Positions 24,309-39,894 of a stretch of 64,000 nt of DNA are shown piece after piece. Both the position numbers and the translations under genes were made by a program. This DNA comes from an uncultured Bacteroidales bacterium (GTDB taxonomy: Bacteria; Bacteroidota; Bacteroidia; Bacteroidales; UBA932), in NCBI GenBank assembly GCA_900318015.1, contig ONJB01000006.1:9658-73657 (forward strand), in the 5' to 3' direction. Within the stretch, counting starts at the first letter, position 1. Each line of letters begins with the position of its first letter. The notes beneath the pieces were generated by a model. That model saw only the letters and a list, made by a program, of their open reading frames with translations, ran no database searches and was not told the DNA's origin.

Positions 24309-26615
24309 ATGAAGAACCACACCATACTCTGCCTCCTCTCCGCCGCCGCTGTCCTTTCCGCCTGCGGCCCGAAGGCCCCGTTGTACAAAGATGCGGACCG
24401 GTCCGCGGAGGAACGGGCGGACGACCTCCTGAAACGGATGACCGTCGAAGAGAAACTGGGGCAGCTCCTGTGCCCGCTGGGCTGGCCCATGTACGACAAG
24501 GTATCGGCCGACAGCGTGACCATTTCCGACGCCTACCGGGATTTCATCCAAAACCAGCACGGAGGCATGCTCTGGGCTGTTTTCCGGGCCGATCCCTGGA
24601 CCCGGAAGACCCTGGAGAACGGACTCGACCCCACGCTCGCCGCGAAGGCGTACAACGCCCTGCAGCGCTATGCGATGGACAGTACCCGGCTCGGAATCCC
24701 CATCATCCTGGCCGAGGAGGCGCCGCACGGGCACATGGCCATCGGCACGACGGTGTTCCCCACCTCGATCGGCCTGGCATCCACCTGGGACACGGAACTC
24801 GTGGAGCTGGTGGGGGAAACCATCGGCACGGAACTGCAGGCGCAGGGGGCGACCATCGGCTACGGCCCGGTCATCGACCTGGCCCGCGAACCGCGCTGGT
24901 CCCGCGTGGAAGAAACCTATGGAGAAGACGTCTATCTGACCTCGGAGATGGCTTCCGCGATGGTGCGGGGCACTTCCTCGAAGGGCGTGGTCTCCACCCT
25001 CAAGCATTTCGTCGCCTATGGTGTCCCGGAAGGCGGCCATAACGGCAATCCGTCCATCATCGGGATGCGCGACCTCCAGGAGAACGTCTTGCCCACCTTC
25101 AAGGCCGCCATCGACGCCGGCGCCCTGTCCGTGATGACCTCCTACAACTCCCTGGACGGCATTCCCACCACATGCAACGCGGATCTCCTGACCGGCGTCC
25201 TACGCGATGACTGGGGCTTCCGAGGATTCGTGGTCAGCGACCTGGAGAGCATCGACGGCCTCCAGACCAGCCACCATGTCGCGGCTTCCCGGCAGGAAGC
25301 CGGCGAGCTGGCGCTGAATGCCGGCGTGGACGTGGACCTGGGCGCGCACTGCTATGCGCAACTCAAGGAATCCGTGGAAAAGGGCCGGGTAAGCAAGGCT
25401 GTCCTGGACCGCGCCGTGAAGCGCGTCCTCGTCCGCAAGTTCGAGGCGGGCCTGTTCGACAACCCCTATGTCGATGAAAACGCGGCCGCGGGCCTCGTCC
25501 GCACGCCGGAGCATATCGAAGTGGCCGCCCAGGCAGCCCGGGAAGGCGTCGTCCTTCTCAAGAACAACGGGGTCCTGCCCCTGTCGAAGGGCATGACCGT
25601 CGCCCTCATCGGCCCGAATGCCGACAACCAGTACAACCAGCTGGGCGACTACACCGCCCCGCAGGCGGAAGACCACGTGGTCACGATGAAGGAAGGCCTC
25701 GAGGCCAAGGGAATCGACGTCCACTACGTGAAAGGCTGTGCCGTCCGCGACAAGGAACACTCTTCCATCGCACAGGCGCTCGTGGCCACGATGCTGTCCG
25801 ACGTCGCCGTGGTCGTGGTGGGCGGCTCCTCCGCCCGCGACTTCAAGACCAAGTACATCGACACCGGCGCGGCGGTCGTGGACGAGGAATCCGTCTCCGA
25901 CATGGAAGCCGGCGAAGGCTTCGACCGGGCGTCGCTGGACCTCCTGGGCCTCCAGGACGAGCTCCTGAAGGCGGTCCGGTCCGTCGGAAGGCCCGTCGTG
26001 GTGGTGTATGTCGAAGGCCGTCCGCTGGACAAGAAGTGGGCTGCTGACAGGGCCGACGCCCTCCTGACGATGTGGTACCCCGGCGGCGAGGGCGGCACGG
26101 CCCTGGCCGATGTCCTCTTCGGCGACTACAACCCGGCCGGACGCCTCCCCGTCAGCGTTCCCCGCGACGCAGGCCAGCTTCCGGTGTATTACAACAAGAA
26201 GAATCCGCGCGGACACGACTACGTGGAAATGACCGCCGACCCGCTCTATCCCTTCGGCTACGGCCTGAGCTACACGACTTTCGAGTATTCAGGCCTGACC
26301 GTTTCAGGCAGCGTTCCCAACGTGGAAGTGACCGTCAACGTGAAGAACACCGGCTCCCGCGACGGCGACGAGGTGGTCCAGCTGTATGTGGTGGACCCGC
26401 TCGCGTCCACCGTCCGGCCGCGGAAGCAGCTCCGCGCCTTCGACCGCGTGTTTGTCAAGGCTGGTGAAACAGTCCCCGTCACCCTGAAACTCGGCCCCGA
26501 TGCGTTCTCGCTCGTGAATGCCGCCGGGGACACGGTCACCGAACGCGGCGACTTCATCCTCCAGGTGGGCGCCTCCTCCGAGGACATCCGCCTGACAGAA
26601 ACGATTACATATTGA
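24309..26615 (+). CDS. GH3 beta-glucosidase/xylosidase family glycoside hydrolase, lipoprotein
   Basis: Lipobox VLSAC; TRLGIP, EEAPHG, REPRWSRVEETYGED, LKHF, FVVSD nucleophile region, PLYPFGYGLSYTTF and an Fn3-like tail. Confidence 0.93.
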   Translation: MKNHTILCLLSAAAVLSACGPKAPLYKDADRSAEERADDLLKRMTVEEKLGQLLCPLGWPMYDKVSADSVTISDAYRDFIQNQHGGMLWAVFRADPWTRKTLENGLDPTLAAKAYNALQRYAMDSTRLGIPIILAEEAPHGHMAIGTTVFPTSIGLASTWDTELVELVGETIGTELQAQGATIGYGPVIDLAREPRWSRVEETYGEDVYLTSEMASAMVRGTSSKGVVSTLKHFVAYGVPEGGHNGNPSIIGMRDLQENVLPTFKAAIDAGALSVMTSYNSLDGIPTTCNADLLTGVLRDDWGFRGFVVSDLESIDGLQTSHHVAASRQEAGELALNAGVDVDLGAHCYAQLKESVEKGRVSKAVLDRAVKRVLVRKFEAGLFDNPYVDENAAAGLVRTPEHIEVAAQAAREGVVLLKNNGVLPLSKGMTVALIGPNADNQYNQLGDYTAPQAEDHVVTMKEGLEAKGIDVHYVKGCAVRDKEHSSIAQALVATMLSDVAVVVVGGSSARDFKTKYIDTGAAVVDEESVSDMEAGEGFDRASLDLLGLQDELLKAVRSVGRPVVVVYVEGRPLDKKWAADRADALLTMWYPGGEGGTALADVLFGDYNPAGRLPVSVPRDAGQLPVYYNKKNPRGHDYVEMTADPLYPFGYGLSYTTFEYSGLTVSGSVPNVEVTVNVKNTGSRDGDEVVQLYVVDPLASTVRPRKQLRAFDRVFVKAGETVPVTLKLGPDAFSLVNAAGDTVTERGDFILQVGASSEDIRLTETITY

Positions 26616-26617
26616 CC

Positions 26618-29600
26618 ATGAGAAACATACCGATCCTCCTCGCCCTGCTGCTCCCGGTCGCGGCCACGGCCCAGAGCCTGCCGTACTGGCAGGATGTGGA
26701 CGTGACTTCCGTGAACGCCGAGACGCAACGTACCGAGACCATCTGGTTCGCCAACCGGGCCAACGCCTTGTCCAAGGGATTCCGCCAAAGCGAGAACTAC
26801 GTGAATCTAAACGGGACATGGGATTTCAAGTACTTCGACGATTACCATGAGATGGAACGGTACCGCGGCTCCGACTGGGACCGGATCCAAGTGCCGGGGA
26901 ACTGGGAAGTACAGGGATATGGCGTCGCCATCTACACCAACATCCCGTACGATTTCTGCCCCCAGGATCCGCAGCCGCCCACGCTGCCGGAAGTATTCCC
27001 CGCCGCCCTCTACCACCGGACCTTCACGGTACCGGACGGATGGAAGGGCCGGACGGTCTTCCTGAACCTCGCCGGCATCAAATCCGGCTCGTACGTCTAT
27101 GTGAACGGGAAGGAAATCGGCTATGCCGAGGATTCGAAGAGCCTCGCCCGGTACGACATCACGAAGGCCTTGAAGGAGGGCGACAACGAGCTGACCCTCA
27201 AGGTGTACCGCTATACGACCGCCTCCTGGCTGGAGTGCCAGGATTTCTGGCGCATCAGCGGCATCGAGCGGGACGTGTACCTGTCCAGCGAGAAGACGCC
27301 CGTCCGTTTCGACTTCCGCGTCGTCTCCACCCTGGATCCCACGCTGACCAAGGGCGTCTTCCAGCTGAAAATGCGGTCGGAAGCCCGCGCCGAGGTCTTC
27401 TATGAACTCATCGACCAGAACGGGGAAACGGTCGCCGACGCCATCTACGTTTTCTCCGGCGAGATGACCACGGCCGCCGACACCATTCCGGACGTACGGA
27501 AATGGTCGGCTGAAACCCCGGAACTGTATACCCTCCTCCTGCAGGTCAACGGGGAATACACCCGCTTCCATGTGGGCTTCCGCCGCATCGAGATCGCGAC
27601 CGTCAAGGACGGGGAACGCGACGTGAAGGCCCTCCTCGTCAATGGGCAGCCGGTCAAGTTCAAGGGCGTGAACATGCACGAGCACAACCCCTACACCGGC
27701 CACTACCAGACCAAGGAGAACATCCTGCAGGACCTGGAACTCATGAAGAGGGCGAACATCAACGCCATCCGCACCTGCCACTATCCCCAGCCGCGGGAGT
27801 TTTACGAGCTCTGCGACAGCCTCGGTTTCTATGTCTATGACGAGGCGAACATCGAATCCCACGGCATGGGCTACAAGCTGGACCGGACCCTCGGCAACAA
27901 TGCCGCCTGGCAGGCCAAGCATCTGGACCGGATCCTGAACATGTACCACCGCACGGCGAACTATCCGTGCGTGACCATCCTGTCCCTTGGCAACGAAGCC
28001 GGCAACGGCGTCAACTTCTATGAGGCCTACCGCGTCCTGAAAGCCCTGGAGAGGGACGGCCAGAACCGTCCCGTGTGCTACGAGCGGGCGGAAAGGGAGT
28101 GGAACACCGACATGCTTGTCCCGCAGTACCCCGGCGCCGACTGGTTCGCCCGGATGGGAGAACGGGAATCCGGCCGGCCGGTCGTCCCGTCCGAGTATGC
28201 CCACGCGATGGGCAATTCCACCGGTTCCCTCGACCTCCAGTGGAATCAGATCTATGCCCATACGCACCTGCAGGGCGGTTTCATCTGGGACTGGGTGGAC
28301 CAGGGCCTGTACGACGAGGAAAAGGGATGGACCTATGGCGGAGATTACGGAGTCGATGCCCCTTCCGATGCGAACTTCCTGTGCAATGGCCTGGTCAATC
28401 CGGACCGCAATCCGCACCCCGGTTATTTTGAGGTAAAGCATGTCTATCAGGACATCGCCATCACGGGCGTCGCTCCGGAGGAAGGCCGGTTCGCGATTCA
28501 GAACAGATTCTATTTCAAGGACTTGAGCGATTACTCGGTCCGTTGGCGCCTCGAGCGGGACGGAAAGCCGGTGCGGAAGGGCAAGCTCTCCTTCTCCACG
28601 CCCGCCCAAAGCTCCGAGGAATTCACCCTCCAGATTCCCAAACGGAAACTCCGGAAACGCGGCGAGTACCGGATCTTCTTCGAGACGGAGACCGCCCATG
28701 CCCTGCCGCTGCTTGCAAAGGGCACGGTCGTTGCCGCGGACGAGGTCCTCATCAAGGACACGGGCACGCTGAAAGCCTACAAGGCCCGCCTGACAGCGGA
28801 GGAATCGGAATCCGAAACGGAAATCCGGATCGAAGCCGGCAAGGGCGTCCTGATCTTCGACAAGGCCCTCGGCATCGTCCGGAGCTACACGTACAAGGAA
28901 CACGACCTGTTCGATCCGGACTTCGGCCTGCGTCCCAACTTCTGGCGCGGCCCCACCGACAACGACTACGGCAACAACCAGCCTTACCGGGCTTATGCCT
29001 GGAAAGAGGCCTCCCTGTCCTTCCGGGCCGAAGTTTCCCTCGATGAAAGTACCATCCATGCCACCTACGCCCTTCCCGGCGGATGCTCGATGGCGGTGGA
29101 CTATACCCTTCTTTCCGGCGGCCTTCTCAAAATCACGGCCGCTTTCCACGGCGCTGAAAAGAAACCCGTGGACATTCCGCGCATCGGCTTCCGCTTCCGC
29201 GTCAAGGAGAATGACTTCCGGTATTTCGGCCGCGGTCCGGTGGAGAATTACATCGACCGCAACACCGGCACCTTCAAGTCCGTCTTCACGACGAAGGCCT
29301 CCGACGAATTCTACCCGTATGTCCGGCCGCAGGAGACCGGTCACCACACGGAAACCGAGTGGCTCGCCACGAAACCGCTGACGGTCGTCGCCGACGGCAC
29401 CTTCGAATTCAGCGCGCTCCGCCACAGTGTCGAGGACCTGGACAGCGAAGAGTCCGGGCAGCCCTTCCAATGGAACAACTTCGACACCCCGCCCGTCCAT
29501 GATGAGGAAGAGGCCGCCAGACTCCACAAGCGTCGTCAGACCCATCTCTGCGATGTCCCCGACCGCGATTTCACCGAAATCTGCATCGACGGGGCCGCCT

Positions 29601-29743
29601 CCGGCGTGGGCGGTTACGACAGCTGGGGCTCCCGGCCCGAGCCGGCCCGGACCGTCTGGTCCAACGAAGACCGGACTTTCACCTTCACCCTCGTGCCCAC
29701 CCGGGCCCGCAAAACCGAAAAAGCCATCCGCTATGCGTATTAG
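26618..29743 (+). CDS. GH2 beta-galactosidase (LacZ-like architecture)
   Basis: WRISGIERDV, KGVNMHEH, NAIRTCHYP, SLGNEAG, SEYAHAMGNS, GGFIWDWVDQG and a Bgal_small-like C-terminus. Confidence 0.93.
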   Translation: MRNIPILLALLLPVAATAQSLPYWQDVDVTSVNAETQRTETIWFANRANALSKGFRQSENYVNLNGTWDFKYFDDYHEMERYRGSDWDRIQVPGNWEVQGYGVAIYTNIPYDFCPQDPQPPTLPEVFPAALYHRTFTVPDGWKGRTVFLNLAGIKSGSYVYVNGKEIGYAEDSKSLARYDITKALKEGDNELTLKVYRYTTASWLECQDFWRISGIERDVYLSSEKTPVRFDFRVVSTLDPTLTKGVFQLKMRSEARAEVFYELIDQNGETVADAIYVFSGEMTTAADTIPDVRKWSAETPELYTLLLQVNGEYTRFHVGFRRIEIATVKDGERDVKALLVNGQPVKFKGVNMHEHNPYTGHYQTKENILQDLELMKRANINAIRTCHYPQPREFYELCDSLGFYVYDEANIESHGMGYKLDRTLGNNAAWQAKHLDRILNMYHRTANYPCVTILSLGNEAGNGVNFYEAYRVLKALERDGQNRPVCYERAEREWNTDMLVPQYPGADWFARMGERESGRPVVPSEYAHAMGNSTGSLDLQWNQIYAHTHLQGGFIWDWVDQGLYDEEKGWTYGGDYGVDAPSDANFLCNGLVNPDRNPHPGYFEVKHVYQDIAITGVAPEEGRFAIQNRFYFKDLSDYSVRWRLERDGKPVRKGKLSFSTPAQSSEEFTLQIPKRKLRKRGEYRIFFETETAHALPLLAKGTVVAADEVLIKDTGTLKAYKARLTAEESESETEIRIEAGKGVLIFDKALGIVRSYTYKEHDLFDPDFGLRPNFWRGPTDNDYGNNQPYRAYAWKEASLSFRAEVSLDESTIHATYALPGGCSMAVDYTLLSGGLLKITAAFHGAEKKPVDIPRIGFRFRVKENDFRYFGRGPVENYIDRNTGTFKSVFTTKASDEFYPYVRPQETGHHTETEWLATKPLTVVADGTFEFSALRHSVEDLDSEESGQPFQWNNFDTPPVHDEEEAARLHKRRQTHLCDVPDRDFTEICIDGAASGVGGYDSWGSRPEPARTVWSNEDRTFTFTLVPTRARKTEKAIRYAY

Positions 29744-32030
29744 ACTCTCCCTGGCCGCCCTGCTCCTGGCCTGGCCGCTCTTTGCCCAGACCGAATATGT
29801 CAACCCGTTCATCGGCACGACCAATTTCGGGGCCTGCAACCCGGGCGCCGTGACGCCAAACGGGCTGATGAGCGTAACGCCGTTCAATGTGATGGGCTCC
29901 CGCCTCAACACCTGGGACAAGGACAGCCGCTGGTGGTCCACGCCGTACGTGGAAGAGAACCGCTATTTCACGGGCTTTGCCCATGTGAACCTGTCCGGCG
30001 TCGGCTGCCCGGAGCTGGGTTCCGTCCTTACCATGCCCACCACGGGACCGCTGGAGGTCGATTACCACGCCTACGGAAGCGAGTATTCCAACGAGCAGGC
30101 GCACCCCGGCTACTATTCCAACCGGCTGGCGAGCGGCATCCTGACGGAAGCCACCGCCACCACCCGGACCTCGCTGGAACGCTATACCTTCCCGGCCGGG
30201 GCCGGCAATATTCTCGTGAACCTGGGGGAAGGCCTGACCAACGAGTCCGGCGCCATGGTCCGCCGGGTTTCCACGACGGAAATCGAAGGGGTCAAGCTGA
30301 TGGGCACGTTCTGCTACAACCGGAACGCGGTGTTCCCGATGTACTTCGTCCTGCGTGTGAGCAAGACGCCGGACCGCAGCGGCTATTGGAAGAAGCAGCG
30401 GCCGATGACCGCCGAGGCCGCCTGGGATTCCGATGCGGGCCGCTACAAGCTGTACGAGGCCTATTCCCGGGATCTGTCCGGCGAGGACATCGGCTTCTGG
30501 TTCCGCTATGAGAACCTCACCGAGGGCGAACAGGTGATGCTGCAGGTGGGCGTTTCCTTCGTGAGCATCGACAACGCGCGGGAGAACCTGGAGGCCGAGC
30601 AGCAGGGGTTCGACTTCGACGGGGTCTGCGCGGCCGCGTCAAAGGCCTGGCAGGAACAGCTGGGCCGCATCCGCGTGACCGGCGGCACGGAGGATCAGAA
30701 AACCATCTTCTATACCGCCCTGTATCACGCATTGATCCATCCGAACATCCTGGAGGACGTGAACGGGGAGTATCCGCTGATGGAATTCGGCAATCCGGAG
30801 GCCGTGAACAGCATCCCGTTCGCGACCGGACGCAACGGGATCGCGCAGCGCAAGCTGCGTGCCCGCGGCCTGGGCCGCGTTCCGGAGGGGCAGCACCGCT
30901 ACACGGTTTTCTCCCTGTGGGACACCTGCCGGAACCTGCACCAGCTCCTGACGCTGCTCTATCCGGAAAAGCAGATCGACATGGCGCGGTCCGTGGTGAA
31001 CATGTACCGCGAGTGGGGCTGGATGCCCAAGTGGGAACTGTACGGCCGCGAGACCTTCACGATGGAGGGCGACCCGGTGATTCCGATGCTGACGGACACT
31101 TACCTCAAAGGCTTGACGGACTTCGACATCGCCACGGCCTACGAGGCTTTCCTGAAGTCCGCCGACACGCCCGGCGAAAAGAACCGGATGCGGCCGGACG
31201 TGGATCCGTACATCGAGCGGGGGTATGTGCCGCTGGGCTGGTTCGCGCAGGATTTCTCCGGCGACAACTCCGTGTCCCACGCCCTGGAGTACTATATGGC
31301 CGATGCGGCGCTCGCCCGCCTCGCCACGGCCCTCGGACACCCCGAGGACGCCGCCAAGTACCGCCAGCGCTCGCTGGGCTACAAGCACTACTGGTCCCCG
31401 GAATACGGTTGCCTGCGGCCACTGCGGAAGGATGGCACCTTCCTCGAGCCGTTCAACCCGCGCCAGGGCGAGAACTTCGAGCCCGTGCCGGGCTTCCATG
31501 AGGGAAGCGCCTGGAACTATACGTTCTACGTGCCGCACGACGTGGACGGCCTTATCAAGCTCACGGGCGGCTCCAAAGCCTTCGTGAAAGCCCTGAACAA
31601 GGTTTTCAACGAAGGCCTGTACGATCCCGCCAACGAGCCGGACATCGCCTATCCGTACCTGTACAGCCGTGTGAAGGGCGAGCAGTGGCGCACCTGGAGC
31701 ACGGTGCACGACCTGCTGGCCAAGCACTACCACAATGCCCCGAACGGCATTCCCGGCAACGACGACACCGGTACGATGTCGGCCTGGGCCGTGTTCTCGA
31801 TGATGGGCTTCTACCCCGACTGCCCGGGCGACCCGTCCTACACCCTTACCCTGCCCGTCTTCGACCGCGTGGACATCGACCTGCCCGACGGCAAGACCCT
31901 GACGGTGACGAAAGCCGCCGGCGCCAAGCCCGCCAAGGGCACTACGGCTCGGGTCGGCAGCCGCAAAGTCTCCGACTACCGCATCTCCCACGACGCCCTC
32001 GTGAATGCGGGCACCATCAAGTGGCAGTAG
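29733..32030 (+). CDS. GH92 alpha-mannosidase
   Basis: Start reassigned to MRIRLSLAALL; YVNPFIGT, FYTALYH, FSLWDT, SHALEY, EGSAWNY, NEPD and PGNDDTGTMSAW. Confidence 0.93.
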   Translation: MRIRLSLAALLLAWPLFAQTEYVNPFIGTTNFGACNPGAVTPNGLMSVTPFNVMGSRLNTWDKDSRWWSTPYVEENRYFTGFAHVNLSGVGCPELGSVLTMPTTGPLEVDYHAYGSEYSNEQAHPGYYSNRLASGILTEATATTRTSLERYTFPAGAGNILVNLGEGLTNESGAMVRRVSTTEIEGVKLMGTFCYNRNAVFPMYFVLRVSKTPDRSGYWKKQRPMTAEAAWDSDAGRYKLYEAYSRDLSGEDIGFWFRYENLTEGEQVMLQVGVSFVSIDNARENLEAEQQGFDFDGVCAAASKAWQEQLGRIRVTGGTEDQKTIFYTALYHALIHPNILEDVNGEYPLMEFGNPEAVNSIPFATGRNGIAQRKLRARGLGRVPEGQHRYTVFSLWDTCRNLHQLLTLLYPEKQIDMARSVVNMYREWGWMPKWELYGRETFTMEGDPVIPMLTDTYLKGLTDFDIATAYEAFLKSADTPGEKNRMRPDVDPYIERGYVPLGWFAQDFSGDNSVSHALEYYMADAALARLATALGHPEDAAKYRQRSLGYKHYWSPEYGCLRPLRKDGTFLEPFNPRQGENFEPVPGFHEGSAWNYTFYVPHDVDGLIKLTGGSKAFVKALNKVFNEGLYDPANEPDIAYPYLYSRVKGEQWRTWSTVHDLLAKHYHNAPNGIPGNDDTGTMSAWAVFSMMGFYPDCPGDPSYTLTLPVFDRVDIDLPDGKTLTVTKAAGAKPAKGTTARVGSRKVSDYRISHDALVNAGTIKWQ

Positions 32031-32718
32031 GCCTTTTCACCTTCACCGCCACGCGGGAACCGTCGGGGAGGAAGAGGGGAACGAGCGGCTTGATCACGAT
32101 GCCTTCGCAAAGGTTGCCGTCGATGGACGGGAGCCCCAGCTCACCCGGAACGGCCGTCGGGAAGACGTGCGGGTAGGCCAGGCAATCATCCAGAAGACCG
32201 ACGAAACGGTTCCAGGCGTACAGGAGGCCGGCATCCGAAAAGAGGGCGTTCGCCTCCATCACCGGCAGGAAGAAGCCGCCGTCTTTCGTGAAGACATAGA
32301 TGTCAAAGGCATAGAAATCGCGCCCCGGAGCATACCAGATGCCCTTTTGGACGGGCCAGTCCAAGTGGTCCAGCGCCACGTCCGGATGCGGGTAATGCCC
32401 GCCGAACAGTTCTCCGTAGACCGCGATGGAAGTCATCTCCGGGTGAGACAACCGGAGCCGGTTGTAGATGTGATAGACATGCCCCGAGTATCGCTCGAGG
32501 ACCTGTTGATAGCCGAAGAAAGGCTCCAACGGATCCAGGATGGCCGTCCGCCGGGCCATCCGGACCTCCAGGTCGTCACACAGGAAGGAGACGTTCGCCC
32601 CGTCGACCTTCTCCTGCACGGCGAAGAGGGTTCCGATCTCCACATTTTCACGCACTTGCGCCATCCACGCCGCATCCGCGGCATTCCCGATGGAAGGATA
32701 AGGTTTGAACTGGATCAT
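32017..32718 (-). CDS. Rnl2-type ATP-dependent RNA ligase, adenylyltransferase domain only (C-terminal domain absent)
   Basis: Start reassigned to MIQFKPYPSI (233 aa). Motifs: I QEKVDGAN, RR, III GELFGGHYPHP, IIIa FYAFDI, IV EGIVIKP, V RVAVKVK, then a stop 5 codons later inside the antisense of the GH92 3' end. Confidence 0.85.
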   Translation of the reverse strand: MIQFKPYPSIGNAADAAWMAQVRENVEIGTLFAVQEKVDGANVSFLCDDLEVRMARRTAILDPLEPFFGYQQVLERYSGHVYHIYNRLRLSHPEMTSIAVYGELFGGHYPHPDVALDHLDWPVQKGIWYAPGRDFYAFDIYVFTKDGGFFLPVMEANALFSDAGLLYAWNRFVGLLDDCLAYPHVFPTAVPGELGLPSIDGNLCEGIVIKPLVPLFLPDGSRVAVKVKRPTAT

Positions 32719-32772
32719 GGCCGTTTTCTCTTTTTTGCAAAGTTCGGGAAGGGAAAAGAAAAGGGTAGCATG

Positions 32773-32814
32773 ATTGCAAGGCTTGCAATGTCGGATTTCC
32801 TGCAAGGCTTGCAG
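32773..32814. promoter_or_regulatory. Tandem perfect palindromes (core TGCAAGGCTTGCA), candidate operator pair
   Basis: ATTGCAAG-G-CTTGCAAT at 32773-32789 and CTGCAAG-G-CTTGCAG at 32800-32814; cores 26 bp apart; between divergent near-consensus -7 boxes (GAACTTTG minus 32738-32745; TATCTTCG plus 32845-32852). Confidence 0.75.
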
Positions 32815-32853
32815 ACTTTTTGAGGCCGGACCGCAAAAAATGCGTATCTTCGT

Positions 32854-33432
32854 ATGATGATTGGCTGGGAAGCACAACTCTGGCTCCAGCATTGCCTGGA
32901 AAGCGGGGTCCTGGAGGACCCGGCCGTGGATTATCTGGCGGAGCGGGTGGACGAAATGGACGCCGCCGCCCTGCTGGAGGCCATGGGGCTGCTCCGGAAA
33001 CGGCTCGCCGAGATCGCGGTCCTGGAAGGGACGGATGACGGGGAAAGGATCCGAGTCACGAAAGACTACCGCATCCTCCTTCCCGACCGATTCGACACGG
33101 AAATCCGTCTCCGGCCGCTCGTGAAGACGGTGTTCCTGCTCTTCCTCCGCCATCCGGAAGGCATCCGGTTCGGGGACCTGCCAGCGTACCGGAACGAGCT
33201 CATGGACCTGTACCTGGGCATCACCCGGCGTCCCAGCGGATTGGAGACCGAAGCGAGCATCGACCGCCTCATCGACCCGCGCGACAACTCCATCCACGAG
33301 AAGGCGGCGAACCTGGCGGCGGCCCTCTCGAAATACTTTCCGCCGGAAAGGGTGCACGCCTACACGCTGACGGGCAAGGCCGGCGCTCCGAAACGCATCC
33401 GGCTGGACCGGAGCCGGGTAGAATGGGAATGA
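32854..33432 (+). CDS. Uncharacterised protein, putative winged-helix-type DNA-binding regulator
   Basis: C-terminal LRPLVKTVFLLFLRHPEGIRF...NSIHEKAANL...GKAGAPKRIRLD resembles a recurrent Bacteroidales hypothetical family with an OmpR-like helix/wing pattern. No signal peptide; ATG lies right after the -7 box (likely leaderless). Confidence 0.55.
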   Translation: MMIGWEAQLWLQHCLESGVLEDPAVDYLAERVDEMDAAALLEAMGLLRKRLAEIAVLEGTDDGERIRVTKDYRILLPDRFDTEIRLRPLVKTVFLLFLRHPEGIRFGDLPAYRNELMDLYLGITRRPSGLETEASIDRLIDPRDNSIHEKAANLAAALSKYFPPERVHAYTLTGKAGAPKRIRLDRSRVEWE

Positions 33433-33445
33433 CACAAAACGCGAT

Positions 33446-34876
33446 ATGAAACCACAGAAAGCACTGATCCTGACCCTCCTCGCGCTGGTCGCCTGTGCGC
33501 CCAAGCCGAAACAGGAGGAAAAAACCACGAAACTGTACACCGACCGTCCTCCCGTGGAGGAGCGCGCCTTCGTCTCCCCCGCCGTCGATGCGGCCACTGA
33601 GGCCATCGCCGCGCAGATCACCCATCCCAAGCTGCAGGAGATGTTCCGGAAGTGCTTCCCGAACACCCTGGACACCACCGTCCATTACGCCGAGGATGAG
33701 GACGGGCGGCCCGACACCTACGTCTACACCGGCGACATCCCGGCCATGTGGCTCCGCGACTCCGGCGCCCAGGTCTGGCCCTACCTCGCCTTCGTGGGCG
33801 AGGACGACGCCCTCCGGAAGATGATCGCGGGCGTGATCAACCGCCAGTTCAAATGCATCCTCATCGACCCGTACGCCAACGCCTTCAACGTGGACCCCAT
33901 CGGCCCGGCCGACGACACCGACCTCCCGAAGCCCGGTCCGTACGTGTTCGAGCGCAAGTGGGAGATCGACTCCCAGTGCTATCCGGTGCGCCTCGCCTAC
34001 GCCTACTGGCAGAAGACCGGCGACACATCCATCTTCGGCAACCTGTGGATGAAGACGGCGAAGACCATCCTCGCCACCTTCAAGGAGCAGCAGCGAAAGG
34101 AAGGACACGGAAGCTACACCTTCCTGCGCGTCACCGACCGCCAGCTGGACACCAAGTGCGTGGTGGGCCGGGGCAATCCGGTGAAGCCCGTCGGCCTTAT
34201 CGCCTCGTCCTTCCGCCCCTCCGACGACGCCACCACCTTCGAGTTCCTCGTGCCCTCCAACTTCATGGCAGTCACCACCTTGCAGAAGATGGCGGAGATC
34301 CTCTCGGCCGTGAACGGCGAGAACGCGATGGCCGTGGAGTGCCTGGCCCTGGCCGACGAAGTCTCCGCCGCCCTGCAGCAGTATGCCGTCGTGGACCATC
34401 CCAAGTACGGGAAGATCTATGCCTATGAGGTGGACGGTTTCGGCTCGCACCAGCTGATGGACGACGCCAATGTCCCGTCCCTCCTCGCCCTCGGCTACCT
34501 GGACCCGGAGCGGTTCGACGACCCCGTCTACCTGAACACCCGGAAGTTCGTCTGGAGCGAGGACAACCCGTATTTCAAGCGGGGCAAGGCCGGCGAAGGC
34601 ATCGGCGGCCCGCACGCGGGCATCGAGAATGTCTGGCCCATGTCCATCCTGATGAAGGCCTTCACGGCCCGGGACGATGAAGAAATCGTCGCCTGCCTCA
34701 CCCAGATCCTCCGCACCGACGCCGGCACCGGTTTCATGCACGAGTCCTTCCACAAGGACGATGCAAACAATTTCTCCCGCCCCTGGTTCGCCTGGGCGAA
34801 CACCCTCTTCGGCGAGCTCATCATGAAACTCGTCCATGACGGCAAACTCGAACTCCTCAACAACCTGCCCCAATGA
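33446..34876 (+). CDS. GH125 exo-alpha-1,6-mannosidase family lipoprotein
   Basis: Lipobox LVAC; TGDIPAMWLRDS, ERKWEIDS, MDDANVPSLL, WPMS, MHESF and WFAWAN. Confidence 0.92.
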   Translation: MKPQKALILTLLALVACAPKPKQEEKTTKLYTDRPPVEERAFVSPAVDAATEAIAAQITHPKLQEMFRKCFPNTLDTTVHYAEDEDGRPDTYVYTGDIPAMWLRDSGAQVWPYLAFVGEDDALRKMIAGVINRQFKCILIDPYANAFNVDPIGPADDTDLPKPGPYVFERKWEIDSQCYPVRLAYAYWQKTGDTSIFGNLWMKTAKTILATFKEQQRKEGHGSYTFLRVTDRQLDTKCVVGRGNPVKPVGLIASSFRPSDDATTFEFLVPSNFMAVTTLQKMAEILSAVNGENAMAVECLALADEVSAALQQYAVVDHPKYGKIYAYEVDGFGSHQLMDDANVPSLLALGYLDPERFDDPVYLNTRKFVWSEDNPYFKRGKAGEGIGGPHAGIENVWPMSILMKAFTARDDEEIVACLTQILRTDAGTGFMHESFHKDDANNFSRPWFAWANTLFGELIMKLVHDGKLELLNNLPQ

Positions 34877-37152
34877 AAAAGACCCTGATCCTCCTGGCTT
34901 TCCTCGCCGCGGCCTGCACGGCCCCGGTCCGCGAAACCCTCGTCTCCGACCCGGCGGACTACGTTTCCACCCTGGTGGGCTCCCAGTCCGATTTCACCCT
35001 TTCCACGGGCAATACCTATCCGGCCATCGCCCTCCCCTGGGGCATGAACTTCTGGACCCCGCAGACGGGAAAGAACGGGGACGGATGGGCCTATACCTAC
35101 GACGCGCACCACATCCGCGGTTTCAAGCAGACGCACCAGCCCTCGCCGTGGATCAACGACTATGCGGCCTTCTCGCTGATGCCGGTGCGCGACGCCGAGA
35201 AGCCGCAGGAGAAGGAGCGGGAGAGCATCTTCTCCCACCTGAGCGAGGTTGCAAAGCCTTATTATTACAGCGTTTACCTCGCCGACCACGACATCAAGAC
35301 GGAAATCACCCCGACCGAACGGGCGGCGATCATGCGGTTCACCTTCCCGGACAGCGAGACTTCCGGCGTGGTCATCGACGCCTACTCCGGCGGTTCCTAT
35401 GTGAAAGTGCTGAATGACAAGCGCACGGTCGTGGGCTACTGCACCAACAATCACGGCGGCGTGGAAGGCGACTTCAAGAACTGGTTCACCGTCCTGTTCG
35501 ACAAGGACATCGTCTCCTTCGACATCTACAACGGCGAAGCGCTGGAGTATCCCGAGGACCGTCCCCGGGAGCATGCCATGGCCGTCGTGAAGTTCGCAAC
35601 CCGGCGCGGCGAACAGGTCAACGCCCGCGTGGCCTCCTCCTTCATCTCGCTGGAGCAGGCCAACCGCAACCTCCGCGAGGTGGAAGGCGCTTCCTTCGAG
35701 GAGGTCTGCGCCGACGCAAAGGCCCGCTGGAACGAGATCCTGGGCCGTATCGCCGTCGGCGGCGGCACCGAGGACCAGTACCGCACCTTCTACTCCTGCC
35801 TGTACCGCGCCGTCCTCTTCCCCCGAAAACTGTATGAAATCGACGCGAACGGCGAGCCCGTCCACTACAGCCCCTACAACGGGAAAGTCGAGAAAGGCTA
35901 CCTGTACACCGATTCCGGCTTCTGGGACACCTTCCGCGCCCTGTTCCCGCTGCTGAACCTGGTCTATCCCGACGTGAATGCGGAAATCCAGTCCGGCTAC
36001 GCCAACGTCGCCCGCGAGAACGAGTTCCTGCCTGAATGGGCCTCCCCGGGCCACCGCAACTGCATGGTGGGCAACAATTCCGCCTCGGTCGTGGCCGACG
36101 CCGTCGTCAAGGGCGTGAACAAGGAAAGACTGCAGGAACTGTACGACTGCATCCAGTACGGTACGGAGCACGTCCATCCTTCCGTCCGCTCCACCGGCCG
36201 CCTGGGCCACGAGTATTACAACACGCTGGGCTATGTCCCTTGCGACGTGGGCATCAACGAAAGCGCCGCCCGCACCCTGGAGTATGCCTATGACGACTGG
36301 TGCATCCTCCAGCTCGCGAAGATCCTGGGCCGTCCGCAGGCGGAACTGGACAAGTGGGCCGCCCGCGCCAACAACTGGAAGAACGTCTATAGCGCGGAGG
36401 ACCGCCTGATGCGCGGCCGCAACGCCGACGGCACCTTCCAGGCCGATTTCAGCCCCTACCGCTGGGGCGGTCCCTTCACCGAGGGCAACTCCTGGCACTA
36501 TACCTGGTCGGTCTTCCACGATGTCCAGGGCCTGGTCGATGCCATGGGCGGCGAGGAATCCTTCGCCCAGATGCTGGACTCCGTCTTCGTGGTCCCGCCC
36601 ATCTATGACGACGCCTACTACGGCTTCCGCATCCACGAAATCGCGGAGATGCAGGTGGCCGACATGGGCAATTACGCCCACGGAAACCAGCCCGCACAGC
36701 ACATGCTGTACCTCTACGACTGGGCCGGACAGCCTTGGAAGGGCCAGCTGCACATCCGCGAGACCATGGACCGCCTGTACCGCGCCACGCCGGACGGCTA
36801 CTGCGGCGACGAGGACAACGGCCAGACCTCGGCCTGGTACATCTTCTCCGCCCTGGGCTTCTATCCGGTATGCCCCGCAAGCACGCAATACGCGCTGGGA
36901 ACGCCGTTGTTCAAGAAAGCGATGGTGACGCGCCCGGACGGCACGAAGTTCACCATCGACGCTCCCGAAAACAGCGCCGAGGCCTTCTACGTGCAGTCCC
37001 TGAAGCTCAACGGCAAGAACTGGACGCACAATTACGTCGAATACGGCGACCTGGTGAAGGGCGCCTCGCTGCAGTTCGGGATGGGCACCGCGCCCGCCAC
37101 GGACCGCGGCACGAAGCAGGAAGACAAACCTTACTCTTTCAGTCAAGAATAA
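34873..37152 (+). CDS. GH92 alpha-mannosidase lipoprotein
   Basis: Lipobox LAAAC; STGNTYP, HQPSPWINDY, GFWDTFRA, ARTLEYAYDD, EGNSWHY and GDEDNGQTSAW. Confidence 0.93.
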   Translation: MKKTLILLAFLAAACTAPVRETLVSDPADYVSTLVGSQSDFTLSTGNTYPAIALPWGMNFWTPQTGKNGDGWAYTYDAHHIRGFKQTHQPSPWINDYAAFSLMPVRDAEKPQEKERESIFSHLSEVAKPYYYSVYLADHDIKTEITPTERAAIMRFTFPDSETSGVVIDAYSGGSYVKVLNDKRTVVGYCTNNHGGVEGDFKNWFTVLFDKDIVSFDIYNGEALEYPEDRPREHAMAVVKFATRRGEQVNARVASSFISLEQANRNLREVEGASFEEVCADAKARWNEILGRIAVGGGTEDQYRTFYSCLYRAVLFPRKLYEIDANGEPVHYSPYNGKVEKGYLYTDSGFWDTFRALFPLLNLVYPDVNAEIQSGYANVARENEFLPEWASPGHRNCMVGNNSASVVADAVVKGVNKERLQELYDCIQYGTEHVHPSVRSTGRLGHEYYNTLGYVPCDVGINESAARTLEYAYDDWCILQLAKILGRPQAELDKWAARANNWKNVYSAEDRLMRGRNADGTFQADFSPYRWGGPFTEGNSWHYTWSVFHDVQGLVDAMGGEESFAQMLDSVFVVPPIYDDAYYGFRIHEIAEMQVADMGNYAHGNQPAQHMLYLYDWAGQPWKGQLHIRETMDRLYRATPDGYCGDEDNGQTSAWYIFSALGFYPVCPASTQYALGTPLFKKAMVTRPDGTKFTIDAPENSAEAFYVQSLKLNGKNWTHNYVEYGDLVKGASLQFGMGTAPATDRGTKQEDKPYSFSQE

Positions 37153-37155
37153 ACG

Positions 37156-38145
37156 ATGAAAATCTTTGGGAATCCCCTCCCGGGCATGCCCTGGGAAGAA
37201 AGGCCGGCAGGATGCAAGGACGTCCTGTGGCGCTACAGCAAGAACCCCGTGATTCCGAGAGACTTGCTCCCGGACAGCAACAGCATATTCAACAGCGCGG
37301 TGGTCCCGTTCAAGGGCGGGTTCGCCGGCGTGTTCCGCTGCGACGACAAGAACCGCCGGATGACGCTCCACGCGGGCTTCTCCAAGGACGGCATCCAATG
37401 GGACATCCGGCCGGAGACCATCAAGTTCTCCTGCGACATCCCCGAGGTCGCGGAATGGGTCTACGGATACGATCCACGCGTCGTGGAGATCGACGGCCGT
37501 TACTATGTGACCTGGTGCAACGGGTACCATGGGCCGACCATCGGCGTGGCCTGGACCGACGATTTCGAGACCTTCCACCAGGTGGAGAACGCTTTCCTGC
37601 CGTACAATCGAAACGGTGTCCTGTTCCCGAAGAAGATCGACGGCCGGTTCGCGATGCTGTCCCGTCCGTCCGACACCGGTCACACGGCCTTCGGCGACAT
37701 CTTCTACAGCGAATCCCCCGACCTGGAGTTCTGGGGGCACCATCGGCACGTGATGGCGCCGGCCCCCTTCGAGGTGAGCGCCTGGCAGTGCATGAAGATC
37801 GGCGCGGGCCCGGTGCCCATCGAGACTTCCGAAGGCTGGCTCCTCCTCTACCACGGCGTCCTCCGCTCCTGCAACGGCTATGTCTATGCGTTCGGCAGTG
37901 CCCTGCTGGACCTCGAGAAGCCCTGGAAGGTCCTCGCCCGCAGCGGCCAGTACCTCATCAGCCCGCGCGAGTACTATGAGCTCGTAGGAGACGTGCCCAG
38001 CGTCACCTTCCCTTGCGCCGCCCTGCATGACCCGGAAACCGGTCGCATCGCCGTGTACTACGGCTGCGCCGACACCGTCACCGGCCTCGCCTTCGGCTAC
38101 ATCCCGGAGATTGTCGAGTTCACCAAACGCACGAACATCCTGTAG
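37156..38145 (+). CDS. GH130 beta-mannoside phosphorylase (beta-1,4-mannosyl-GlcNAc phosphorylase-like)
   Basis: [55 protein letters not shown] and GDVPSVTFP; no signal peptide. Confidence 0.9.
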
Positions 38146-39894
38146 ATGCTGACCGTCCTGCTCGCTCTCGCCCTCCAAGCCCTGCCGCTGCCCCGGATGG
38201 TGGACATCCCGGCGGGGACGTTCTGGATGGGTACGGACAACCCGTCCATGGAGGACTGGGACGAGGCGCCGCGGCGGGAGGTGAAGGTCGATGCGTTCCG
38301 GATGAGCGCGACGGAGATTACGAACGCCCAATACGAGGCGTTCGACCCGACGCATAAGCGAGGCGAGCAGGGGTTTTCCACCGGAGACGACGAGGCGGTA
38401 ATCATGGTGTCGTGGGACGATGCCATGGCCTACTGCCGATGGCTCTCCGAACAGACTGGTAAGCACTATCGCCTCCCCACCGAGGAGGAATGGGAGTATG
38501 CCTGCCGGGCGGGAACGACCACGGATTATAACACAGGCGACACCTTCCCGGAAAGCCAGTGGAAGGTGCAGAAAAACACTCGCGACAAGGAGCTCATCTC
38601 CCTGCAAGTGGCTCAGTTTGAGCCCAATGCGTGGGGGTTGTATGACATGCATGGGAATGTGGAGGAGTGGTGTGCGGACTATTATGGCGACACGGAATTC
38701 CGCGTCGTCCGCGGGGGCAGCCACAACACCCCGGTGCGGTATCTCCGGAGCGCCAACCGGTCCGCCAGCGTCCAGTCCGACCGGTCCGTCCTGCTCGGAT
38801 TCCGGGTCGTCGAGAGCCCGAGTGCATTGTGGCATACCCGCGACGGAGCCCTCCGCTCCGGCACTCCCTATCGTTGGAAGCGTATCCGTCGCAAGCCCGT
38901 CTTCCTGGAGCCCATTCCCTACGTCCTGGAGCCGACAGGCCACACGCCGTTCTATGCCCATAACCACCAGCCTGCCCTGACATGGACCCAGCACGGCGAG
39001 CTGCTGGCCATCTGGTTCTCCACGGACGCCGAGGCAGGGCGCGAGATGGTGGTTCTGAAGTCTCTGTTCAAGAACGGCCAATGGACACCGGCGGAACTGT
39101 TTTACAAAGTTCCGGATCGGAACATGACCGGGAGCGCACTCCTCACCCTGGAGGATGGACGGATGTTTCACTTACAAGGCATCGGCGATGCCGGCGAGTG
39201 GAAGGATCTCGCGCTCGGCCTGCGGGAGAGCACGGATGGGGGTTGGCATTGGTCCTCTACCGAACTCATCGAACCCGAACACCGCGTCCGCCACCAGGTC
39301 ATCGCCGGACCCATCGTCACGAAGGACGGACGCATCCTGCTGTGCTGCGACGCCGGGCCGGATGGGGAGGCAGGGACTTCGCTCCATGTCTCCAAAGACG
39401 GCGGCCAGACCTGGGAGGACACCGGCAGCACCATTGCCGGCATCCATGCGGGCATCGTGGAGCGCAAGGACGGCTCCCTGATGGCCTTCGGGCGGGGCAA
39501 TGCCATCGACGGTCACATGCCCTGCAGCATTTCCTATGACGGCGGGTACACATGGACCTACAGTGCCACGGAGTTCCCGCCCATCGGCAGTGGCCAGCGG
39601 CTGGTGCTCAAGCGGTTGCAGGAGGGGCCGATCATGCTGTGCTCCTTCGGTGAAAACGGCCTGTTCGTAGCCCTCAGTTATGATGAAGGCGCCACCTGGC
39701 CCGTGAAGAAGCTCCTTACCGACGGCAAGACGCGGGTCCTGGACGGCGGCGCCTGGACCGGCACTTTCACGATGGACGCCACCCACGCCGAGCCCAAGGG
39801 CTACCTCGCCTGCACCCAATCCCCCGACGGCATGATCCACCTCCTCTCCAGCCGCGTCCACTACCGGTTCAACCTCCGCTGGATTGAAAAATGA
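38146..39894 (+). CDS. FGE-sulfatase (SUMF1-like) domain fused to a BNR/Asp-box beta-propeller
   Basis: GTFWMG, TEITNAQY, VSWDDAMAYC, RLPTEEEWEYACRAG, LYDMHGNVEEW, RGGS, GFRVV; four Asp-boxes (STDGGWHW, SKDGGQTW, SYDGGYTW, SYDEGATW). Confidence 0.85.
   Translation: MLTVLLALALQALPLPRMVDIPAGTFWMGTDNPSMEDWDEAPRREVKVDAFRMSATEITNAQYEAFDPTHKRGEQGFSTGDDEAVIMVSWDDAMAYCRWLSEQTGKHYRLPTEEEWEYACRAGTTTDYNTGDTFPESQWKVQKNTRDKELISLQVAQFEPNAWGLYDMHGNVEEWCADYYGDTEFRVVRGGSHNTPVRYLRSANRSASVQSDRSVLLGFRVVESPSALWHTRDGALRSGTPYRWKRIRRKPVFLEPIPYVLEPTGHTPFYAHNHQPALTWTQHGELLAIWFSTDAEAGREMVVLKSLFKNGQWTPAELFYKVPDRNMTGSALLTLEDGRMFHLQGIGDAGEWKDLALGLRESTDGGWHWSSTELIEPEHRVRHQVIAGPIVTKDGRILLCCDAGPDGEAGTSLHVSKDGGQTWEDTGSTIAGIHAGIVERKDGSLMAFGRGNAIDGHMPCSISYDGGYTWTYSATEFPPIGSGQRLVLKRLQEGPIMLCSFGENGLFVALSYDEGATWPVKKLLTDGKTRVLDGGAWTGTFTMDATHAEPKGYLACTQSPDGMIHLLSSRVHYRFNLRWIEK

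Follow-up and report, generated by a model that had tools for sequence, protein, structure and literature searches.

We analyzed a 64,000-nucleotide (nt) stretch of DNA from an uncultured Bacteroidales bacterium (assembly GCA_900318015.1, contig ONJB01000006.1, positions 9,658 to 73,657; hereafter the window), in which a gene for a short RNA ligase and a gene for a 192-amino-acid (192-aa) protein stand back to back between genes of glycan degradation. The window has a G+C content (GC) of 0.62, and its nearest matches are metagenome-assembled genomes (MAGs) of rumen and hindgut Bacteroidales. The ligase gene occupies 32017-32718 on the minus strand and encodes a 233-aa Rnl2-type RNA ligase that consists of the nucleotidyltransferase domain only, as identified by PF09414, alignment, AlphaFold2 (AF2) modelling, and Foldseek. 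The 192-aa protein, a putative regulator binding the dyads described below, is encoded at 32854-33432 on the plus strand and was characterized from its open reading frame (ORF), an AF2 model, and Foldseek. Between the two genes lies a divergent control region of 135 base pairs (bp; 32719-32853) with a GC of 0.47. On one side, the ligase gene converges on that of a GH92 alpha-mannosidase (29748-32030, plus strand; Pfam PF07971/PF17678 and the ORF list), and the two 3' ends have 14 nt in common (32017-32030). On the other, a 13-nt spacer (33433-33445, plus strand; delimited by the sequence and by a terminator scan) leads from the end of the 192-aa ORF to the start of a GH125 gene. The gene coordinates, the 14-nt overlap, and the 13-nt gap given in a preliminary description of this region proved exact when compared with the ORFs and the sequence. 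A 553-aa minus-strand ORF that runs over the ligase gene is an artefact of high GC, the true start being the ATG at 32718, as in all homologues, and no Rfam elements were found in the region.

The 233-aa protein matches PF09414 in Pfam at 1e-19, and its match to TIGR02307, the Rnl2 equivalog, covers model positions 2-216 of 326 with a score of 115.1 bits, below the cut-off of 197.15. T4 Rnl2 and REL1 align with it as PDB sequence matches. Alignment with T4 Rnl2 (equivalent T4 residues in parentheses) places motif I at K37 in EKVDGAN (K35), motif Ia at R57 (R55), motif III at E103 (E99), motif IIIa at F138/D139 (F119/D120), motif IV at E205 and K210 (E204), and motif V at K226/K228 (K225/K227); the columns that are invariant among the homologues include E36, G40, R57, G102, E103, F138, D139, E205, G206, and K226. 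The AF2 model of the ligase has a predicted local distance difference test score (pLDDT) of 91.7 and a predicted template-modelling score (pTM) of 0.91, and Foldseek matched it to the engineered fragment Rnl2(1-249) (PDB 1s68) with a template-modelling score (TM) of 0.80 in both directions and to REL1 (PDB 1xdn) with a TM of 0.82. The protein ends 5 residues past motif V, and the all-helical C-terminal domain of T4 Rnl2 (PF18043, T4_Rnl2_C) is absent from the gene. Elsewhere in the genome, which is 92.5% complete, PF18043 also has no match (best E 0.24), and on this ground we rejected a C domain encoded at another locus, and the 233-aa protein is the sole PF09414 ligase of that genome. The ligase is a complete Rnl2 nucleotidyltransferase domain in which every catalytic motif is present and the C-terminal domain is missing, a feature that does not emerge from the preliminary description. 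It shares its fold and motifs I, Ia, III, IIIa, IV, and V with T4 Rnl2 and with Rnl2(1-249), known as Rnl2tr, and ends almost at the engineered cut of the latter, but it is a natural, conserved bacterial gene product whose identity with T4 Rnl2 is only ~24%. Motif I reads KxHG in T4 Rnl2 as against KxDG in most of the short ligases, which, unlike the T4 enzyme, always have a winged-helix protein encoded next to them. One metagenome homologue (P0126; 84% identical, in a single-sequence cluster) has EQVDG in place of EKVDG and no catalytic lysine, which could reflect an inactive variant or a sequencing error.

A protein search returned ~70 clusters of such short ligases, 206-283 aa in length and with 56-92% identity, that match PF09414 only; they stand sharply apart from full-length forms of ~337 aa and ~40% identity, which match both PF09414 and PF18043. 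Surveying one genome per species, we obtained 14 species with the short form, which together with the window make 15 genomes, and 66 full-length loci; the tail past motif V measures 0-26 aa in the 14 short-form species and ~110 aa in nearly all of the full-length loci. Maximum-likelihood analysis of the catalytic domain groups all 15 short sequences in a single clade with 100/99 support. This clade has a long stem (0.43) and falls among the full-length Rnl2 enzymes of gut Bacteroidales, from which we conclude that the C domain was lost once. These full-length enzymes, from MAGs of Prevotella, Bacteroides, and Cryptobacteroides, are the nearest sequence relatives (44-49% identity) and form sister groups in the tree; they have retained the ~110-aa C domain and have no winged-helix neighbor, and where examined their loci contain metallophosphoesterases, toxin-antitoxin genes, and SMC-like genes instead. 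In the literature searched, whose coverage did not extend to the RNA-repair survey of Burroughs and Aravind, we found neither a natural bacterial Rnl2 without a C domain nor the pairing of such a ligase with the 192-aa protein.

When compared with the window, the other short-ligase genes gave ratios of nonsynonymous to synonymous substitution rates (dN/dS) of 0.08-0.33 at dS values of 0.35-1.3, similar to those of GH125 (0.13-0.23), and the 192-aa genes gave 0.12-0.34. Both genes are under purifying selection, and the truncated ligase is itself maintained by selection, because the short form is conserved, forms a single clade, and has a low dN/dS. We also considered gene decay, in which the ligase would be what is left of a full-length Rnl2 after the neighboring GH92 gene had cut it short, as its overlap with the 3' end of GH92 and its score under the TIGR02307 cut-off might suggest. 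The same truncation point after motif V recurs, however, in 15 genomes with different downstream neighbors, the catalytic residues are invariant, the model is that of a confident, complete domain, and the selection data, which extend over dS values of up to 1.3, contradict decay, so that this explanation can hardly be right.

Searches of Pfam, NCBIfam, PADLOC, and PHROGs returned no match for the 192-aa protein. An exhaustive search yielded 2,040 clusters of relatives, an unannotated family in which many members are 350-500 aa long and carry the part matching residues ~62-192 at the C-terminus, behind variable and mostly unannotated N-terminal regions; among 2.9 million viral contigs, the family had just 5 matches. 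The AF2 model, built from an alignment of 50 homologues, has an overall pLDDT of 87.8, with 89 for residues 61-70 and ~94-98 for each 10-residue block from residue 71 onward. Two N-terminal helices (residues 5-17 and 28-58) precede a predicted winged-helix domain (~62-192) of OmpR/PhoB topology, which comprises a three-stranded sheet (strands 66-68, 74-76, and 82-84), four helices (88-99, 106-124, 130-140, and 146-158), and a C-terminal hairpin (strands 180-182 and 189-191). Foldseek against the PDB gave DNA-binding domains of the OmpR/PhoB/ToxR type as 15 of its 18 top-ranked matches, including those of YycF, ToxR, GlnR, AdeR, OmpR, and KdpE. The topology of the OmpR/PhoB/ToxR domains (Trans_reg_C), with an N-terminal β-sheet, three helices, and a C-terminal β-hairpin, is alike, whereas the 192-aa protein has an extra helix, lacks a receiver or membrane domain, and is associated with inverted rather than direct repeats. 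We regard the OmpR/PhoB-like assignment as probable, and at the level of the fold only, because the Foldseek scores are weak and no link between the families is seen with sequence profiles.

Two GCAAG-N-CTTGC palindromes, each a copy of the dyad TGCAAGGCTTGCA, are set 26 bp apart between the ligase and 192-aa genes. The ligase-proximal copy (32775-32787) extends to a 17-bp perfect palindrome at 32773-32789, and the regulator-proximal copy (32801-32813) is part of a 15-bp palindrome at 32800-32814 that is followed on the plus strand by ACTTTTTGAG. These are the only exact copies of TGCAAGGCTTGCA in the 3.2-Mb genome. Both dyads and their 26-bp spacing are kept in 14 of the 15 genomes with the pair, the arms being constant and the central base C or G; in the most divergent pair member, the arms read ACAAG/CTTGT. 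The word GCAAGNCTTGC occurs at a density of 0.157/kb at the pair loci and 0.096/kb at loci of paralogues without a ligase, compared with 0.002/kb near full-length Rnl2 genes (612 kb) and 0 near the GH125 genes of congeners (111 kb). The genus-wide background of the exact site is ~2 per Mb, and among the 12 congeneric genomes with a family gene, 9 have the exact site at most 1 kb from it, in some cases 13-34 nt upstream; two further family paralogues are accompanied by the related dyads TACAAGCTTGTA and CAAGTACTTG. Because the dyad word tracks the 192-aa family even where no ligase is present, we take it as strong indirect evidence that the family binds the dyad. The winged-helix model, together with these paired palindromes that track the family, makes the 192-aa protein very probably a DNA-binding regulator, as the preliminary description had proposed. 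As a separate observation, four congeneric genomes in which no family gene was detected (G019, G025, G029, and G036) contain 8-19 copies of GCAAGNCTTGC, versus 1-9 of a control word.

The palindromes might instead function as RNA or DNA hairpins, for example as bidirectional insulators or terminators against read-through from GH92, since the terminator scan calls CTGCAAGGCTTGCAG with ACTTTTTGAG terminator-like on the plus strand and read-through from GH2-GH92 would otherwise cross the ligase gene in antisense. However, the stem would be only 5-6 bp long with a loop of 1-3 nt, the same 11-mer accompanies the protein family at unrelated loci (among them the sites 13-34 nt upstream of family genes), and the palindrome is rare elsewhere; a fixed 26-bp distance separating two sites that lie between divergent promoters is, moreover, typical of operators. 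We therefore consider hairpins in place of operators very unlikely.

The candidate promoters bear on how the dyads might be used. A candidate Bacteroidetes -7 box for the ligase gene, GAACTTTG (32738-32745, minus strand), has one mismatch to TAnnTTTG and lies ~20 nt before the ATG, and a candidate -7 box for the 192-aa gene, TATCTTCG (32845-32852, plus strand), likewise has one mismatch and goes with a candidate -33 element, TTTG, at 32819-32822. If the latter box is real, the mRNA of the 192-aa gene would be leaderless or nearly so, because the box is so close to the ATG. Conserved blocks in the alignment of the control regions overlap the candidate boxes, the block on the ligase side being CTTTGCA. 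Each dyad is ~48-50 bp upstream of the nearer predicted start site and ~75 bp upstream of the farther one, a symmetric layout that would fit co-regulation of both promoters if the predicted boxes are real.

The two genes are tightly coupled in their distribution. In all 15 short-ligase genomes (14 fetched and the window), a gene of the 192-aa type is adjacent to the ligase gene and divergent from it, which bears out the earlier treatment of the pair as a real unit and shows that it recurs. By tblastn, a close 192-aa homologue is missing from all 66 full-length Rnl2 loci, and a profile search revealed one distant, partial relative (at locus L070), 3.8 kb from a full-length Rnl2 gene. In the most divergent pair member, the pair and its dyads are located outside glycan genes, with DUF1232, MFS, GrpE, and DnaJ genes, and its two proteins share 56% and 47% identity with their window counterparts.

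This coupling would also be expected if the enzyme were a split ligase, in which the 192-aa protein acted mainly or additionally as a nucleic-acid-binding subunit replacing the C domain in trans. The ligases that lost this domain are the ones that gained the neighbor (15 of 15 short forms, compared with 0 of 66 full-length forms having a close homologue and the distant, partial relative at L070), the short clade is of single origin, the genome encodes no C domain at any other locus, and common sites at both promoters would keep the two proteins co-expressed. RNA-binding partners acting in trans are also known for Rnl2-family ligases, namely the OB folds of trypanosome A1/A2 (PMC3413154). Against this, the genes diverge instead of being co-translated, paralogues that are short and share the full-length architecture exist where there is no ligase, and the association of the whole family with a DNA palindrome suggests that it binds DNA. 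Nor has the protein any homology to the Rnl2 C domain: an hhalign comparison of the family with 65 C-domain tails returned a probability of 0.6%, by which we rejected a C domain relocated to the N-terminus of the 192-aa protein. We find the split ligase quite unlikely on balance, and think it improbable, too, that the 192-aa protein is both an operator-binding regulator and the missing ligase subunit, the C domain having been replaced in one evolutionary step; if it were so, a split-Rnl2 partner could couple the sensing of RNA ends to transcription of the ligase and of the glycan operon.

Beyond the regulator gene, GH125 (33446-34876), a second GH92 (34873-37152), GH130 (37156-38145), and a gene for an FGE-sulfatase/BNR protein (38146-39894) follow on the plus strand, and a GH2 gene (26612-29743, plus strand) precedes the upstream GH92; the Pfam matches of these flanking glycan genes are all strong. 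GH125 and the second GH92 overlap by 4 nt, the second GH92 and GH130 are separated by 3 nt, and GH130 abuts the FGE/BNR gene; no terminators are predicted between the regulator gene and this GH125-GH92-GH130-FGE/BNR series. In 14 of the 15 genomes, glycoside hydrolase genes begin ~13-50 nt downstream of the regulator gene and are read in the same direction, although which of them comes first varies (GH125, GH92, or GH130). The glycan genes from GH125 to FGE/BNR are probably co-transcribed with the regulator gene. Because of the tight spacing and the lack of a terminator, their transcription would come from the regulator promoter or from read-through of GH2-GH92 across the antisense ligase gene. 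The suggestion that the rightward promoter could drive the downstream mannosidase genes is plausible in light of the 13-nt gap, the lack of a terminator, the abutting genes, and the recurrence in 14 of 15 genomes.

Such an arrangement might equally be read as that of a regulator whose primary role is mannoside utilization, encoded by the first gene of a GH125-GH92-GH130 operon and with the ligase as a tolerated passenger. In favor of this, the regulator gene precedes glycoside hydrolase genes in the same direction in 14 of 15 genomes, and the locus has been rearranged around the pair while the pair stays put. The most divergent member, though, keeps the pair and both dyads at its non-glycan locus, the paralogue loci that were examined are accessory (RtcB/WYL, metallophosphoesterase, SMC-like) rather than glycan loci, the ligase is under purifying selection, and congeners that lack the pair operate with the same glycan genes and have a GH92 where the pair would be. 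We accordingly judge a primary role in mannoside utilization unlikely.

The position of the pair is old. In 12 other species, it lies at the same place, between this GH92 (88-97% identical) and GH125; in two members that are more distant, it is flanked by GH2 and a GH92 or is located away from glycan loci, and in metagenome contigs it also occurs before a GH92 or before GH130. Forty congeneric species sampled have no ligase, and in three of them, a third GH92 directly precedes GH125. The GC of the pair genes (0.605 and 0.644) is close to that of their neighbors (0.61-0.64). As the preliminary description had reported, there is no transposase adjacent to the pair in the window and no sign of a target-site duplication, flanking direct and inverted repeats being likewise absent; as repeats are absent, the GC is not deviant, and 12 other species show synteny, we rejected a recent mobile insertion. 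The insertion junctions could not be placed by comparison with the pair-less congeners, whose DNA is too diverged to align and in which the third GH92 holds the place. The module entered the mannoside locus once, in an ancestor of a rumen Bacteroidales subclade, and was inherited vertically thereafter, as follows from the synteny in 12 other species and from a GC equal to that of the neighbors. The earlier view of the pair as acquired holds in deep time, then, and fails for recent acquisition, given the shared site, the neighbor-like GC, and the purifying selection. Ancestral fixation, which that description had itself set against its proposal, is what we find in these 12 species. On its question of whether GH92 adjoins GH125 in relatives, a third GH92 does so in the three pair-less congeners, and the pair is syntenic in 13 genomes. 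In these three congeners (L050:3108-6692, L051:3608-7129, and L052:3486-7154, from G064, G007, and G002), a single open frame of ~1,200 aa spans the GH125 match, which may be a fusion of GH92 and GH125 or no more than a high-GC stretch that happens to be open.

Taking these results together, we favor, with a probability of roughly 0.6, an autoregulated module of transcription factor and ligase whose rightward promoter also feeds GH125-GH92-GH130-FGE/BNR. In the proposed mechanism, dimers of the 192-aa protein would bind both dyads and control both promoters, thereby regulating their own gene and that of the ligase. The ligase would self-adenylylate on K37 and seal 3'-OH/5'-PO4 or pre-adenylylated RNA ends. 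The N-terminal domain of T4 Rnl2 is sufficient for ligase adenylylation and phosphodiester formation, and its C domain takes part in the transfer of adenosine monophosphate (AMP) to the 5'-PO4 (PMC3149579), so that the short ligase would probably handle 5'-adenylylation unlike T4 Rnl2. The regulator promoter would now also supply the glycan transcripts, since these genes come next without a gap or terminator.

Several points weigh against this module. The Foldseek scores of the putative regulator are consistent but weak (E 0.1-3; target-normalised TM 0.4-0.61), and a link to PF00486 has no support from sequence, as neither Pfam nor NCBIfam gives a match and the 50-homologue profile finds no OmpR-type PDB chain. 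OmpR-type domains usually bind direct, not inverted, repeats. Both promoter boxes are one-mismatch matches only, and at the regulator-proximal dyad, the weak terminator-like hairpin formed by CTGCAAGGCTTGCAG and ACTTTTTGAG has to be reckoned with. The enzyme, lacking the C domain that in T4 Rnl2 is involved in AMP transfer, may be a poor ligase on ordinary 5'-phosphate ends unless this is compensated, and the cassette encodes no end-healing partner (no cyclase, kinase, or phosphatase).

The pair is old and conserved, and it combines proteins of two known kinds, an Rnl2-type ligase and a putative regulator with a winged helix. Trypanosome editing ligases of the Rnl2 family use a separate protein for RNA binding (PMC3413154). 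The catalytic domain of Trypanosoma brucei REL1/REL2, which act with KREPA2/KREPA1, is of the same family as that of the window ligase; in contrast, the trypanosome enzymes have an OB-fold partner in the 20S complex and keep a C-terminal docking region, whereas the neighbor in the window is a predicted winged-helix protein with the signature of a DNA operator.

An RNA ligase gene divergent from the gene of a dedicated transcription factor is also found in rtcR-rtcBA of E. coli and Salmonella, and the layout of the window pair is alike. That system, however, uses a ligase of the RtcB family, which acts on 3'-P/5'-OH ends, and a sigma54 activator with a CARF domain, whereas the window pair combines an Rnl2-type ligase with another kind of regulator. 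We found no end-modifying enzyme in the cassette, no RtcB in the genome, and, by Pfam, no CARF or AAA+ domain in the regulator, so the pair does not belong to the rtcR-rtcBA type.

To our knowledge, bacterial Rnl2-type ligases have no established cellular role. Rnl2(1-249) is valued in the laboratory, where removal of the C domain changes which ligation steps the enzyme performs. A natural version of the Rnl2tr cut, made once, selected in at least 15 genomes, and tied to a regulator, provides a system for studying C-less Rnl2 in cells. For the unannotated Bacteroidota family of ~2,000 clusters, the analysis supplies a probable function in DNA binding through a winged helix and proposes GCAAG-N-CTTGC as the sequence recognized. 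Four mannoside-degrading genes of the subclade probably depend on the promoter of an unrelated module.

A role of the pair in RNA repair is unproven. The preliminary description had stated that ligases of this class heal toxin-cut RNA, which is not established for Rnl2. Rnl2 chemistry requires 3'-OH/5'-PO4 ends, and most toxin ribonucleases leave a 2',3'-cyclic phosphate and a 5'-OH, which Rnl2 can join only with a kinase/phosphatase; the T4 repair of toxin-type cuts is carried out by Rnl1 plus Pnkp. Because such ends need a kinase/phosphatase, none is encoded in the cassette, and the genome lacks RtcB, healing of toxin-cut RNA is unsupported here. Neither protein matched a known anti-phage defense system in PADLOC, and in PHROGs, the ligase alone matched, to a generic RNA ligase family.

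The slot between the 3' ends of the ligase and GH92 genes is variable and is an insertion hot spot in sister species. In the window and at L055, L056, and L060, it is empty and the gene ends overlap. Two loci (L058:5889-6519 and L062:6750-7380) contain an intact Gp49(HigB-like)/HTH toxin-antitoxin pair, two others (L057:6744-7255 and L059) a truncated toxin with an intact antitoxin, and L063:6748-9143 a low-GC (0.44) block with an N6/N4 DNA methyltransferase gene, an unannotated 350-aa gene, and the same antitoxin. At L059:5002-5997, a 331-aa RhuM/Fic gene has been inserted between the dyads and the ligase start, leaving the ligase gene ~1 kb from its presumed operators.

Neighborhoods of the 192-aa family, which the preliminary description had proposed to survey for RNA-repair or defense partners, do include some in which a paralogue adjoins RNA-processing genes, but the association is anecdotal and involves few loci, and the same grade applies to an RNA-end-processing theme drawn from the neighborhoods of Rnl2 and paralogue loci together. 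Among the few full-length Bacteroidales Rnl2 loci examined, some lie beside metallophosphoesterases and toxin-antitoxin genes; in rumen Bacteroidales, full-length Rnl2 occurs with calcineurin-like metallophosphoesterases and a DUF7281/DUF3584 (SMC-like) pair (L070:1660-9949, L075:5364-9144, and L140:4057-8892). The same partners (metallophosphoesterase and DUF7281/DUF3584) lie beside a ligase-less winged-helix paralogue in another genome, which suggests a common pool of accessory-island genes. A 313-aa winged-helix paralogue at L137:1202-6848 (G016:C1) is accompanied by RtcB, two WYL/WCX regulators, an RNase T-like exonuclease, and an unannotated 224-aa protein that has a vWA-like N-terminal sequence and no Pfam match, and the 224-aa gene and the second WYL gene diverge from a region that contains an exact copy of TGCAAGGCTTGCA.

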